From IMG/VR virus record IMGVR_UViG_2740892439_000009: DNA of 64,000 nucleotides. One strand, given 5' to 3'. Positions 40,149 through 44,713 of the stretch are shown here, one piece after another. Positions within the stretch are counted from its first letter, which is position 1. Every line of letters starts with the position of its first letter. Made by a program: the position numbers and the translations under genes. Under the pieces are notes generated by a model, which worked only from the letters and a program-made list of their open reading frames with translations, made no database searches and had not been told where the DNA came from. The DNA is from a virus. Taxonomy: Duplodnaviria > Heunggongvirae > Uroviricota > Caudoviricetes.

Positions 40149-40235
40149 GGGGAGTTAGTCCGTAGAGGTAGCGGTGTAGACTGTAAATCTACTGTCATTG
40201 CGACTCGGGTGGTTCGACTCCATCACTCCCCACCA
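40149..40235 (+). tRNA. tRNA-Tyr (anticodon GTA), long variable arm
   Basis: Acceptor GGGGAGT/ACTCCCC, anticodon arm GTAGA-CTGTAAA-TCTAC, T-loop TTCGACT, CCA. Confidence 0.75.
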
Positions 40236-40538: not shown

Positions 40539-40625
40539 GGAGAGTAGGGAGCATGGTGCTCAAGCGGTCTTGAAAACCGTCCCATTGCGCAAGCGATGAT
40601 GGTTCGATTCCATTACTCTCCGCCA
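40539..40625 (+). tRNA. tRNA-Ser (anticodon TGA), long variable arm
   Basis: Acceptor GGAGAGT/ACTCTCC, anticodon loop CTTGAAA, T-loop TTCGATT, CCA. Confidence 0.75.
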
Positions 40626-40628
40626 GAC

Positions 40629-40696
40629 ACAGCGTTGAGCGGTTTGGCCTTTTAATCAACTCGATTAAGACTCCGCTAACATAAACCAGACCGCTC
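40629..40696. terminator. Long inverted repeat ACAGCGTTGAGCGGT / ACCGCTCAACGCTGT
   Basis: 15-bp arms separated by about 38 nt between the tRNA cluster and convergent minus-strand genes. Confidence 0.45.
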
Positions 40697-40779
40697 AACG
40701 CTGTGATAGACAATTACGGCAGACGTTCTTAACCATAGCTTGCTAACATCCTAGCAACACTTTTTTCAGCGCAAAATTC

Positions 40780-40803
40780 AAAGGGGCTTCGGCCCCTTTT
40801 CTT
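40780..40803. terminator. Bidirectional rho-independent terminator
   Basis: AAAGGGGC ttcg GCCCCTTTT flanked by T/A runs on both strands. Confidence 0.6.
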
Positions 40804-42014
40804 CAAAAAAGTTTTATAAATTCATAATTCTGGTCAATTAAGGATTCAATACACACCATGCAAAAATCTACATCGTCAAAATCAGGTGTGTAATATTCAT
40901 CCTCATAACATTCATTTAGACCTTCAATCAATTTTTCTTTAAAAACTCCCCACGTTTCAATATGAACCATTTCCATATAAGGCGCATGTGTATGTGCTTG
41001 CAATACATCCCAGGTGTCTATAACCTCGATCCGCGGCTTGCAATTAATTTTTTCTAAATATGCCTTCCCAGAATTGTAAATTTTCGACATTGATGCCCCA
41101 AAACCTGATGGTTGGTAATGAGTGTAAATGTCATAAATTTTTTGTCCTATTCTAGGGAGTTGAGAAGCATTGGATATTTGTGGCGAATGAAAGTATCGCT
41201 CTATGGAAGAAAACGCAGAAACATTAACTAGAGTAATCGTATATGGCGCTAAAGTTCTCTCATTCAAATTTCTACATAAAATAGCAAACCCATGGCTATT
41301 AGTCTTTTCACCGTCTGAGGACATTTTTGCCATGCTGGCTTTAATAACATTCAATTTCGAATGTAAACGAGAAGTTGAAGTCGGTTTATTATACATTTCA
41401 TCATCATACAAACATATATGAAACCCACCAAGATGACGAAATGAGAACTTGAGTGCTTCTTCCGCAATAACTAATTTATTAATATCTAAAGGAGTAAGTG
41501 ATACGTTACCTTGTAAATCATAGCAAGGTTCTAAACATAGAAAGTTTTTCTTCTGCCACACGATCATATTAAAAATAAAGTGTCTAACCAGGGGTGGCCA
41601 GTCAGGTGATATAAGTACATTGGTAATATCTCCATCAGACAAGTATGACAAGTAACTTTTTAGTTCCGCAGCATATGCCACCAACTCAGTTCCAGCTTCC
41701 CTTGTTGGTGTTGAAAAGTTTTTTAACTCAATAAGAACTAAGGATTCATTCTCTGTTGAATAAGCAACAACATCAGGTCTTAATATCTCAGATTTTGTTG
41801 CTGAGATATTCTCATCATCTGTCATTAAATGTAACAATGTTATGTTCTTTAAACAAAACTGATAACTCTCCTTAATTTTTTTCTCTTCGGGTCTTTTCGG
41901 ATTAAATTCGTTTAATTTATCAATATTGATGATTGAATTATATAATCCATCTTGATCAGATAATTTGTCAATTATCCAATTTTGCATTTCCTTTTCGCTT
42001 AAAAATATTGACAC
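40803..42014 (-). CDS. Candidate defence effector: 403-aa protein with putative PD-(D/E)xK nuclease motif
   Basis: RPDVVAY ... LVLIELK arrangement in N-terminal third; GTG start preceded by GGGAG; markedly AT-rich. Confidence 0.5.
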   Translation of the reverse strand: MSIFLSEKEMQNWIIDKLSDQDGLYNSIINIDKLNEFNPKRPEEKKIKESYQFCLKNITLLHLMTDDENISATKSEILRPDVVAYSTENESLVLIELKNFSTPTREAGTELVAYAAELKSYLSYLSDGDITNVLISPDWPPLVRHFIFNMIVWQKKNFLCLEPCYDLQGNVSLTPLDINKLVIAEEALKFSFRHLGGFHICLYDDEMYNKPTSTSRLHSKLNVIKASMAKMSSDGEKTNSHGFAILCRNLNERTLAPYTITLVNVSAFSSIERYFHSPQISNASQLPRIGQKIYDIYTHYQPSGFGASMSKIYNSGKAYLEKINCKPRIEVIDTWDVLQAHTHAPYMEMVHIETWGVFKEKLIEGLNECYEDEYYTPDFDDVDFCMVCIESLIDQNYEFIKLF

Positions 42015-42040
42015 TAATTAGGCTCCCGTTAAACCAAAAA

Positions 42041-42862
42041 TTAAAAATCTTGCTTTACTTTATCCATGGTCAGAATTTTGCTAATAATTGAAGATTCAAA
42101 TCCATCTAAACCTGAGAGAAAGTTAATTAGCTTTTGGATATGTTGTTCTTTAGGTATAAGTATATATTTTATATCATTGAACTCAAAATCAATGCCAAAC
42201 TTTGAAAATTCTGAGCTAATTTTTGCTTTGTCATCAGAAGTGATAACACGCTCCAAACTCAGACTAGGCCATAAATCACCAATAAAAGGAGCTGGCACAT
42301 AACGCCACTCTTTCTCGTCTGCATATATATAATTCTCTATTGTTTTATTATCTTTTCGCTCTAGCTTGCCTCTGTAATTTTTCATATAACGCAGTAAATT
42401 ATATAGATCAGAGTATTCTGCTTTCAATTTCTCAAACTCTATTCTGTTTTTGGTATCTAAATTTCCTCTAGCCTTCCAAAGCGGCACCAACTTATTTTTA
42501 ATAAGTCGAATTCTGGCATTGTATTTAGAAAATATTTCACTACTCTTATTCATATATAGAACTGGGTGTAGACCTTTCTTTTCCGCCCAAGACTTAGTTA
42601 GCCCAAGACCGAATTCTCCATATTTTCCGCTATGATCTCTGATTTGTGATAGTTTTATGTCACAAAACGATACCATTGGTACTGCAAACCTCCTACGTCC
42701 CCCGACTCCTCTTATTTCCTCGCGAGCAAGAAATGGTTTAAAATATTTCTCAGCCAATATGCTATAGAAAGCATCTTCGTTTTTTGTAAAATGAAACAAC
42801 GTGGTTGGATGAAGACTATAAACAGATTCAACATTCGCATCAGGATTTTCAAGGATAGTCAT
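42041..42862 (-). CDS. Candidate defence partner protein (about 273 aa from ATG; track ORF extends to 42907)
   Basis: ATG (MTILENPD) preceded by AGGTG; LFHFTK...YG.FGLGL motifs; AT-rich; co-oriented 26 bp upstream of the 403-aa gene. Confidence 0.5.
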   Translation of the reverse strand: MTILENPDANVESVYSLHPTTLFHFTKNEDAFYSILAEKYFKPFLAREEIRGVGGRRRFAVPMVSFCDIKLSQIRDHSGKYGEFGLGLTKSWAEKKGLHPVLYMNKSSEIFSKYNARIRLIKNKLVPLWKARGNLDTKNRIEFEKLKAEYSDLYNLLRYMKNYRGKLERKDNKTIENYIYADEKEWRYVPAPFIGDLWPSLSLERVITSDDKAKISSEFSKFGIDFEFNDIKYILIPKEQHIQKLINFLSGLDGFESSIISKILTMDKVKQDF

Positions 42863-42938
42863 TTTACACCTTGTGGAAAGCCAGTTTAGTTCTGTAAATA
42901 GTATCACACGACAGGCGGCTATTCTTCTATCAATAAAT

Positions 42939-42955
42939 GATAGGTAAGCACTTAC
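42939..42955. promoter_or_regulatory. Palindrome GATAGGTAAGCACTTAC in divergent control region
   Basis: GTAAG..CTTAC inverted repeat, motif family. Confidence 0.35.
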
Positions 42956-43151
42956 TTTTTACGCACGTTAACTGTATAGTTCTTTCGGATACTCACTTGA
43001 AAGGACTCAATATGGGAAATAAATGTAAACATGCGCGTCGCGCATCTCGTCAGGTGCAGAAGTCAAATCCATACATTCACGAGCACTACCACCTCAGCTC
43101 TTTCACTAACCGCTACACGTTCCCCAGCGAAGCGCATAACGAGGCAAAGCA

Positions 43152-43397: not shown

Positions 43398-43403
43398 TTT
43401 TAA

Positions 43404-43426
43404 CGGCTCACAGGAGCCGTTTTTTA
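43404..43426 (+). terminator. Rho-independent terminator
   Basis: CGGCTC acag GAGCCG followed by TTTTTT. Confidence 0.6.
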
Positions 43427-43468
43427 TTCCCACCAAACTCACTCCTGTTTCCCTTAAAATTCAAAAAA

Positions 43469-43501
43469 AAAACGTCTAAATGATTCCATACCTACTATGT
43501 A
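43469..43501. other. lox/FRT-like candidate recombination core: 13-bp perfect inverted repeats around a 7-bp spacer
   Basis: AATGATTCCATAC ctactat GTATGGAATCATT, about 110 bp upstream of the tyrosine recombinase gene. Confidence 0.45.
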
Positions 43502-43609
43502 TGGAATCATTACTGAAAATGAGTTACTTTTACTCTTGATCCTATAAGAATCTATGCCTAATATACTGTTTACTTATACAGTGCATCGGCGTAACTCGGT
43601 GATTGTCAT

Positions 43610-44713
43610 ATGAAAAATAGCTTTGACAGAGCACGCGCTGCGGAGAACACCTCAAAAGAGGCGATAGAGTATCTCGAAAGAGCATCTCAAATGCAGGCCG
43701 TTATGATCTCGCAGGTTAGCAATGACATGAGATTCTCGGACGCATTCATGTTATTCACTCGCTTATCTCTGCTGATAACCAGACGTCGGCCAGAGATCGC
43801 TGTTCATTGTATTTTGATACATGTTTTGCCGCACATTGCCGATGTAAAAGTAAGTGACATTAATAGGTTCATGGTGAACCAACTGGTCAACCCACTAATA
43901 CTGGATGGCAAAATTGTTATGGGCCGCCGCGTTTTCTCTCTGATGAAGCAGTTCCTTAGCTGGTGCGCCTTCCAGGGGATGATAGACGTGTCACCGTTAA
44001 ACGATATGTCACTTAACAAAGTTGCCGGTGGCGCAAAGCCCACACCTCGCGAGCGGAAGCTGACCGACGCAGAGGTATGGGTGTTCTGGAATATATGGGA
44101 CTACTTCAATGTGTGCGCTGGTACAAAATGGGCGGCCAGGCTGTGTCTTGTATCAGCAAGACGACCTGATGAAGTACTGCGGGCTAAAAAAAGTGAGTTC
44201 AATCTTAAGCGTGGGGTTTGGAATCAAGGCAAAAGAAACAAGTCAGCACGTGAGCATTCGCTGCCTTTAAGCACATTAATGCGCACATGCATTGAAGAGT
44301 TGTTCGAATACGGTAAAGACAGCCAGTGGCTCGTGCCTTCGAATAAAAAAATCGGGAAAGACCTTCCTATGTCTAAAGTGGCAATAGCCCAGGCATTACG
44401 TCGTATTCTGGAACGACCAGAACTGATGGAGCTTGAGCCATTTACACCCCGAGATTTGCGCCGTACTGCGCGTAGTTACTTCCCAGCATTAGGCATAAGC
44501 CAGGAGGTATCACGCAAAATCATGAACCACAGTCTTGAGGGGATAGATCGGGTCTACGACCGGCACGATTATATGGACGAGATGCGAGACGCCTTAGAAA
44601 GTTTCTCGACGTACATCGCATCAATCGTAGAGCAACCGGATTTAGACGAAATTGACCACAAATTCAAGGGAGATCGTCTATCAACAGAGCTTATTCGTGT
44701 AAATTTTTCATAG
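43610..44713 (+). CDS. int: Tyrosine recombinase (integrase/resolvase family)
   Basis: C-terminal R...H..R...Y pattern (DLRRTARSYF, MNHSLEG, VYDRHDY). Confidence 0.7.
   Translation: MKNSFDRARAAENTSKEAIEYLERASQMQAVMISQVSNDMRFSDAFMLFTRLSLLITRRRPEIAVHCILIHVLPHIADVKVSDINRFMVNQLVNPLILDGKIVMGRRVFSLMKQFLSWCAFQGMIDVSPLNDMSLNKVAGGAKPTPRERKLTDAEVWVFWNIWDYFNVCAGTKWAARLCLVSARRPDEVLRAKKSEFNLKRGVWNQGKRNKSAREHSLPLSTLMRTCIEELFEYGKDSQWLVPSNKKIGKDLPMSKVAIAQALRRILERPELMELEPFTPRDLRRTARSYFPALGISQEVSRKIMNHSLEGIDRVYDRHDYMDEMRDALESFSTYIASIVEQPDLDEIDHKFKGDRLSTELIRVNFS

Follow-up and report, generated by a model that had tools for sequence, protein, structure and literature searches.

An AbiGi-family gene and a predicted nuclease gene in a variable cargo slot of an SSU5-like phage-plasmid of Escherichia coli

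An AT-rich pair of minus-strand genes

The 64,000-nucleotide stretch of viral DNA analyzed here (Caudoviricetes; IMG/VR virus record IMGVR_UViG_2740892439_000009), referred to throughout as the window, is an SSU5/pHCM2-like phage-plasmid of Escherichia coli. Beside its tRNA cluster it carries a cassette of two genes, one encoding a member of the AbiGi family and the other, which we call geneB, encoding a predicted nuclease. A sequence-only reading had singled out the pair as a candidate anti-phage defence system, and its description of two co-oriented minus-strand genes (42862-42041 and 42014-40803) separated by a 26-bp gap is confirmed. The parts of the cassette are:

40807-43140, minus strand: the whole accessory cargo, 2.33 kb, delimited by homology breakpoints against relatives, presence/absence and GC content
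42041-42862, minus strand: AbiGi-family gene, 273 amino acids (aa), an orphan without AbiGii, predicted ADP-ribosyltransferase-like fold
40803-42014, minus strand: geneB, 403 aa, GTG start; predicted N-terminal PD-(D/E)xK nuclease domain and conserved C-terminal alpha/beta domain; phrog_30092
42015-42040, minus strand: spacer between AbiGi and geneB, 26 nt, without a terminator, from sequence reading and folding
42863-43140, minus strand: region upstream of AbiGi (promoter and 5' leader), within the cargo

The open reading frame (ORF) of the upstream gene at its longest reaches 42907; RefSeq, like the homologues, takes the ATG at 42862 as the start, and AAGGTG stands ahead of this codon. A Shine-Dalgarno sequence (GGGAG, 42027-42023) lies in the spacer 8 nt ahead of the geneB GTG, and the spacer folds with an energy (−5.4 kcal/mol, z −0.43) indistinguishable from that of shuffled sequences. 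Because the spacer has a Shine-Dalgarno sequence and no hairpin, and a single terminator lies downstream, we read the two genes as an operon, in which transcription would start upstream of AbiGi (42863-43140), run through the spacer and stop at a hairpin at 40783-40796. A scan for consensus sigma-70 promoters upstream of AbiGi gave no convincing site. About 65 nt 5' of the AbiGi start codon there is a perfect palindrome, CTATCA-N5-TGATAG (42927-42943), which could be an operator in the cargo promoter region or could be there by chance.

The pair had been described as far more AT-rich than its surroundings, and the figures bear this out: the block at 40808-43140 is 34.8% GC, compared with 47.4% for the whole window, and no other 2.3-kb window has so low a GC content as the cargo (z = −4.0 relative to non-overlapping windows). 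Composition was also considered as a guide to separate origins of the two genes; it is uninformative, since their GC contents (33.4% and 34.1%) and their third-position GC (GC3, 0.28 in both) are alike.

A cargo hotspot between tRNA-Ser and grxA

The flanks of the cassette match Escherichia phages Cyrano and CMS-2020a, which share the gene order of the window for ligase, tRNAs, grxA, integrase and the CobT-like gene, and the cassette itself is 100% identical in pUTAK-6-1. Homology with Cyrano/pLR-48_2 ends at 40806/40800 and picks up again at 43141/43152, grxA starting at about 43141. Among complete E. coli genomes, 212 plasmids have the 182 bp that follow tRNA-Ser; the cassette is present in 19 of these and in no chromosome. 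The 19 carriers are near-clonal (98.6-100% identical), and among plasmids the AbiGi-geneB pair is limited to 18 near-identical E. coli phage-plasmids. The pair is foreign, AT-rich accessory cargo in a variable slot.

The usual occupant of the slot is a plus-strand gene for a 116-aa Gp49-family protein, followed by grxA, and the cargo takes its place. Six E. coli plasmids, pLR-48_2 among them (L003 6196-7494), have instead a minus-strand gene for a 432-aa protein with a putAbiC domain that scores at the Pfam threshold (22.1 versus 22 bits). In Klebsiella phage-plasmids AbiGi stands alone in the slot (64% identical) and is followed by a gene for a PhoH-like ATPase (L099 1487-2263). Nucleotide homology of about 70% identity links this AbiGi-only locus to 42259-43067 of the window, and the Klebsiella AbiGi stop codon lies 15 bp from the shared flank, so that geneB with its 26-nt spacer (about 1.23 kb) is exactly the segment by which the two loci differ. 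There are therefore four states of the slot—the Gp49 gene, the AbiC-like gene, AbiGi alone, and AbiGi with geneB—in which unrelated cargo is held between conserved flanks, and the tRNA-Ser/grxA slot is a cargo hotspot with Abi-type alternative contents.

Defence hotspots of temperate elements have reportedly been described by Rousset et al. (2022) at the old/tin and Z/fun loci of P2 and the psu-int locus of P4. The slot described here is like these in its conserved flanks and its interchangeable, AT-rich and often opposite-strand cargo; its alternative contents are Abi-type, and geneB is itself a cargo gene of P2/186-like prophages (see below). It is unlike them in that the element is an SSU5-like phage-plasmid and the slot is bounded by tRNA-Ser and grxA, and a literature search found no published report of it. 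SSU5-like phage-plasmids occur frequently in E. coli and Klebsiella from clinical and animal sources, and the contents of the slot are therefore relevant to phage susceptibility, including in phage therapy.

The upstream protein is an AbiGi-family member with an ADP-ribosyltransferase-like model

The upstream protein had been thought to lack any assignable motif. It matches Pfam PF10899 at 2e-24 (87 bits; cutoff 22.4) and the PADLOC AbiGi model at 5.5e-47 across model positions 10-260 of 260; all 42 aligned homologues also match PF10899, and the RefSeq name of the protein is already 'AbiGi family protein'. Equivalence to the lactococcal protein is not supported, as the NCBIfam equivalog NF042957 gives 52.4 bits against a cutoff of 300, and L. 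lactis abiGI is about 30% identical over residues 61-273 (78% of the length). The only other Pfam family that recurs among family members is DUF2971, matched weakly by eight of the 42.

An AlphaFold model of AbiGi (pLDDT 91.5) was searched with Foldseek, and the top match is DarT with NAD+ (probability 0.80, E 0.046); the remaining matches have probabilities of 0.18 or less, and the next of these is a second DarT structure. Two conserved segments are candidates for motifs of the ADP-ribosyltransferase (ART) fold:

42302-42316, minus strand: codons E183-R-E185-W-R187 of AbiGi, candidate ExE catalytic motif of the ART fold
42659-42679, minus strand: codons P62-M-V-S-F-C-D68 of AbiGi, invariant strand, candidate ART motif II

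Residues E183, E185, W186 and R187 are invariant in the 42 homologues and lie at a helix-to-strand junction of the model; P62, M63, V64, S65, F66 and D68 are likewise invariant and are assigned to model strand 55-67. For H24, which lies in strand 1, conservation is at least 90%. AbiGi therefore has candidates for both the acidic ExE motif (E183/E185) and the motif-I histidine or arginine (H24) looked for in an ART. From secondary-structure position rather than from superposition we infer that E183/E185 and H24 correspond to ART motifs III and I, and PMVSFCD (62-68) would function as motif II. A 2025 survey of ARTs places AbiGi as a known, poorly studied ART family with an ExE motif, related to DarT and DUF2971 (PMC12522546). 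A sequence search of the PDB with the AbiGi-family profile gave no match. The AbiGi model differs from DarT in having a long helical hairpin inserted at residues 110-157, as well as an additional C-terminal domain, and unlike DarTG there is no DarG-like macrodomain antitoxin adjoining AbiGi.

The orphan distribution of AbiGi (see below) and its enzyme-like fold disfavour a role as the antitoxin of a Type IV toxin-antitoxin pair, and in E. coli lactococcal abiGi and abiGii have both proved non-toxic (PMC3985639); we argue that the 'antitoxin' label applied to AbiGi in Pfam and RefSeq is without support, and an ART-like orphan AbiGi challenges an annotation that is spreading in RefSeq. An ART-like AbiGi that stands alone in Gram-negatives, with residues H24, S65 and E183/E185 named, also offers a test of the AbiGi role that is tractable in E. 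coli.

We propose that AbiGi may serve as a combined sensor and effector, silent (auto-inhibited) in the uninfected cell, which on a phage cue would use NAD+ to ADP-ribosylate a nucleic-acid or protein target and block phage transcription or replication. The proposal agrees with the reported inhibition of phage RNA and DNA synthesis by AbiG and with the DarT precedent. Lactococcal AbiG is triggered by the phage major tail protein, which would be a precedent for the cue, and affects phage transcription and replication, with a 2026 review giving its mechanism as unknown (PMC13064643, PMC12184496).

geneB encodes a predicted PD-(D/E)xK nuclease of a new family

The second gene has no match in PADLOC or NCBIfam and none above threshold in Pfam; its scores with HSDR_N_2 and HSDR_N (16.7 and 12.7 bits) are below the cutoffs (25 and 25.1) and are a lead to the fold only. 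It matches phrog_30092, a family without known function. At 90% identity the geneB family falls into 54 clusters; it has 454 representatives in a set of 1.84 billion proteins and is spread over Enterobacterales, Pasteurellaceae, Alpha- and Betaproteobacteria, Flavobacteriia and Bacillus. Its members come in a short form of 400 aa and a long form of 700-750 aa; in the long forms (L105 3959-6070, L106 3797-5953, P0220-P0318) an N-terminal geneB-like module of about 370 aa is joined to an extension of about 350 aa, for which Pfam and PADLOC searches gave no match.

The segment RPDVVAY...LVLIELK had been read as a PD-(D/E)xK nuclease core, and conservation agrees with that reading. The codons concerned are:

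41721-41777, minus strand: codons P80-D81...E96-L-K98 of geneB, predicted PD-ExK catalytic core

Residues P80, D81, E96 and K98 are invariant in 36 geneB-family sequences (32-52% identity) and are placed by the model on consecutive strands (82-86 and 91-97), in the arrangement of a PD-(D/E)xK motif. In the same sequences R105, G108-T-E110 and D127/D129 are also invariant, as are Y203-D204, G242-F243, E330, W335 and W355-G356 in the C-terminal part. The model has a restriction-endonuclease-like alpha/beta fold resembling the FokI/BspD6I/NucS nucleases; its C-terminal half matches generic ferredoxin-like folds only. The fold relatives are the cleavage domains of Type IIS/ISP enzymes and NucS (N.BspD6I, R.BspD6I, FokI, LlaBIII, NucS), but geneB, unlike these, is without a methyltransferase, helicase or known DNA-recognition domain, and there is no relationship to them at the sequence level (HSDR_N_2 is sub-cutoff, and a PDB search with the geneB-family profile gave no match). 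The invariant motif and the predicted fold together make geneB a predicted PD-(D/E)xK nuclease of a new, uncharacterised family. Compact, confidently folded and without database annotation, it is a candidate new defence gene that no current defence-finder model detects.

AbiG, known since 1996, bears directly on the pair, because the sizes of the two genes had suggested an AbiGi/AbiGii-type system. As in AbiG of Lactococcus plasmid pCI750, an AbiGi-family gene opens a tight bicistron carried by a mobile replicon, and the gene that follows is about equally long, geneB having 403 aa and AbiGii 397-405 aa. The suggestion was correct for the upstream protein and fails for the downstream one. Pfam AbiGii_2 (PF16873) finds true AbiGii proteins at 1e-44 to 1e-157 and does not find geneB even at E ≤ 1; there is no PADLOC AbiGii match; hhalign of the geneB family against true AbiGii gives a probability of 0.2%; and the predicted fold of geneB is that of a PD-(D/E)xK nuclease. 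The upstream protein, too, differs from that of pCI750 in the low identity given above and in scoring 52 bits against the 300-bit equivalog cutoff. The agreement in size (403 versus about 400 aa) is a coincidence, and we regard a canonical AbiGi/AbiGii abortive-infection system as refuted.

AbiGi and geneB each occur without the other

We compared 80 AbiGi loci from a one-genome-per-species collection (about 100,000 species), mostly from Proteobacteria and Bacteroidota. Of the co-oriented neighbours at these loci, 88 of 92 are singletons, and tblastn with 36 geneB-family members found no match at any of the 80. Plasmids of Lactococcus, Bacillus and Enterococcus have AbiGi followed by AbiGii (397-405 aa) after 2-3 nt; unlike these, the AbiGi subfamily of Proteobacteria and Bacteroidota is an orphan without a fixed partner. 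Its tight neighbours include HsdR and HsdM (with AbiGi between them), a Type IIG enzyme, a UvrD-PDDEXK protein with a methylase, GmrSD-HNH and AbiTii, and elsewhere AbiGi sits after HsdR. An AbiGi 71% identical to that of the window is found by itself in a defence island that also holds putAbiC, caspase-WD40 and NB-ARC genes, and one that is 70% identical, also alone, adjoins Avs4 on IncF plasmids.

Several AbiGi loci have arrangements of their own. In Kaistella the gene interrupts a Type I restriction operon, lying between hsdR and hsdM with gaps of 3-4 nt, and housekeeping neighbours are also seen, as in a Lysobacter metagenome-assembled genome where AbiGi lies between guaB and guaA (L024 3667-8224 and L056 4432-8312 for these two arrangements). 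One homologue (P0093, 411 aa) is an AbiGi-HNH fusion carrying an HNH nuclease domain (PF01844/PF14279), and in Luteimonas aquatica AbiGi is apparently the C-terminal part of a predicted ORF of 990 aa (L043 3772-6744).

The picture for geneB is similar: its homologues are without AbiGi in all 12 of the other contexts examined. Five of these are P2/186-like prophages (of Citrobacter, Kosakonia and Edwardsiella, and two metagenomic), in which cI, a variable moron and int are followed, 1 nt after int, by geneB. Because the host flanks beyond geneB differ, geneB belongs to the prophage, and it is probably part of the lysogenic operon. To our knowledge this int-adjacent position is not among the two described P2 hotspots. 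The variable gene between cI and int encodes an uncharacterised protein of 310 or 301 aa, or a bPH_3-SHOCT protein of 183 aa (L011 2976-3908, L012 3414-3965, L112 2049-2954), which would point to cI-int-att as a region where these phages take up cargo.

Two further contexts are integrative and conjugative elements (ICEs), and several are small islets. Among these other copies, one lies in a Salmonella ICE, one in an Oceanicaulis integrative element with ArdA, and one in a primase-integrase island, adjoining an MvaI/BcnI enzyme; Actinobacillus has geneB after uvrB, Serratia has it beside umuDC, and Aureitalea has it in an islet. Remote relatives adjoin putAbiC with a reverse transcriptase, a retron-type HNH/ATPase pair, or DUF4238. 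The family is thus repeatedly carried by prophages, ICEs and defence islands.

These positions raise the question of whether the genes have to do with defence at all. geneB could be a nuclease of the mobile element itself, acting in recombination, excision, replication or as a selfish homing-type enzyme, and AbiGi a toxin-like factor of addiction or inter-element competition that stabilises the phage-plasmid; the placement of geneB 1 nt after int and near integrases in Oceanicaulis and the primase island, the resemblance of AbiGi to DarT (the toxin of a toxin-antitoxin pair), and the fact that neither gene is a validated single-gene system in PADLOC would all fit. Against this, geneB is missing from most P2-like phages and SSU5-like plasmids and is therefore dispensable for the element's life cycle, several copies have no integrase nearby (after uvrB, beside umuDC, in an ICE transfer region), known defence genes abound in the surroundings of both, and lactococcal AbiGi is non-toxic in E. 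coli. We consider a non-defence role quite improbable. A role in defence is suggested by context, that is, by the AbiC-like alternative cargo of the slot and by the occurrence of homologues of both genes in defence islands, restriction operons, prophages and ICEs.

Two stacked modules or one system

The cassette had been taken for one two-gene system. AbiGi and geneB co-occur only in the near-clonal E. coli phage-plasmid set, and each is found alone elsewhere, which speaks for a recent stack rather than a cognate system. We accordingly favour, with a probability of roughly 0.58, a reading in which the cassette is cargo of a swap-prone slot and its two genes are autonomous anti-phage modules of one gene each, stacked and co-transcribed. 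AbiGi, the first module, would act as proposed above. For the second, the C-terminal domain of geneB would gate or target the nuclease, either on detecting infection (infection-activated, abortive) or on meeting modified phage DNA (modification-dependent, Type IV-like), and the enzyme would cut phage DNA or, abortively, all DNA. If expressed from a prophage lysogenic operon, geneB would have to spare host DNA. Gene anatomy, family membership, predicted folds, invariant residues, the hotspot and the separability of the two genes are what the analysis establishes; the enzymatic activities, the triggers, co-transcription and a defence phenotype belong to the proposal.

The main competitor is a true two-component variant of AbiG with the PD-(D/E)xK protein in the place of AbiGii, in which AbiGi would sense or mark (for instance by ADP-ribosylating phage DNA) and geneB would cleave, or one protein would restrain the other. 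The two genes are on the same strand with a 26-nt gap, a Shine-Dalgarno sequence, no internal terminator and one shared terminator; their GC and GC3 are the same; Firmicutes AbiGi is always tightly linked to a partner of about 400 aa; the fusion P0093 joins AbiGi to an HNH nuclease; and the pair is kept in 19 of 19 carriers. The last point is uninformative, however, as the carriers are near-identical, and the pairing is seen at none of the 80 AbiGi loci and none of the 12 other geneB loci. Moreover, AbiGi stands alone in the same slot in Klebsiella, with geneB exactly the segment missing, and geneB has no similarity to AbiGii. We therefore think a two-component system unlikely.

Some of these observations nonetheless weigh against two stacked modules. 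The spacing, shared strand and identical GC3 (0.28) would fit a functional pair equally well, and in the lineage of P0093, at least, AbiGi and a nuclease form a single protein. Placed directly after int, geneB could serve the biology of the element rather than defence, and a tblastn search of 50,697 phage records matched neither protein. Persistence of the pair says little, because its 19 carriers are near-clonal.

A bolder form of the stacked-module reading, which we put forward only tentatively, is that AbiGi is a lone DarT-like, NAD+-dependent ART and the true effector of AbiG-type immunity in Gram-negatives rather than an antitoxin, and that geneB is the founder of a standalone nuclease defence family, in 400-aa and 700-750-aa forms, carried by phage-plasmids, by ICEs and, as lysogenic-operon cargo directly after int, by P2/186-like prophages. 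In the window the two would form one operon and might cooperate, AbiGi marking DNA and geneB cutting it.

Part of this is already known: AbiGi membership is annotated, and the ART nature of the family has been noted in specialist surveys. What is new is the orphan, hotspot-borne AbiGi, the unannotated nuclease family with its int-adjacent prophage niche, the pair as a probable recent stack, and the tRNA-Ser/grxA hotspot; a literature search found no paper on any of the four.

Flanking backbone

The features that border the slot belong to the backbone:

40539-40625, plus strand: tRNA-Ser(UGA), last of the tRNA cluster and left landmark of the slot, from ARAGORN; the same tRNA borders the slot in relatives
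40628-40705, both strands: inverted repeat directly 3' of tRNA-Ser, with 20-nt arms at 40628-40647 and 40686-40705
40780-40800, both strands: bidirectional intrinsic terminator AAA-GGGGC-TTCG-GCCCC-TTTT, a backbone element used by the cargo, from reading and folding

The terminator hairpin (GGGGC-TTCG-GCCCC, 40783-40796) has an A-run and a T-run on either side and lies 2 nt past the geneB stop codon. It was overlooked by a pattern scanner and was identified by reading the sequence and folding it (−13.6 kcal/mol, z −3.4 on the plus strand; −13.2 kcal/mol, z −2.9 on the minus strand), and it is kept in the Cyrano, pLR-48_2 and Klebsiella backbones. The inverted repeat has arms that are 95% complementary and folds with −41.2 kcal/mol (z −8.4); it sits in the flank common to the 212 E. 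coli plasmids, is about 85% identical in Klebsiella, and could be a terminator of the tRNA cluster or, bordering the cargo slot as it does, a site of recombination. Both elements had been reported downstream of the genes and both are real, the repeat with arms of 20 nt rather than 15 bp. As ends of the cassette they were rejected, since both lie in backbone flank that is conserved in cassette-free relatives.

The cassette does lie, as had been noted, between the tRNA cluster and a tyrosine recombinase (43610-44713). The recombinase is not part of it: it is a backbone gene found in all relatives examined, and there is no evidence that it mobilises the cassette. A search for direct repeats flanking the cassette gave only short matches at chance level. 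A second variable spot lies between grxA and the integrase (43398-43609), where Cyrano and an E. marmotae plasmid have a minus-strand hypothetical gene of 184 aa (L002 2817-3371) that is absent in the window.

Four plus-strand tRNAs (Asn, Tyr, Thr and Ser, from ARAGORN) lie just upstream of the cargo, and an Rfam search of the region returned these four as the known RNAs and nothing else. The tRNA-Tyr(GUA), at 40149-40235 between tRNA-Asn and tRNA-Thr, is an extra one that is missing from Cyrano, pLR-48_2 and other relatives, and in Klebsiella relatives the cluster consists of Asn and Ser only; the tRNA cluster is thus itself variable.

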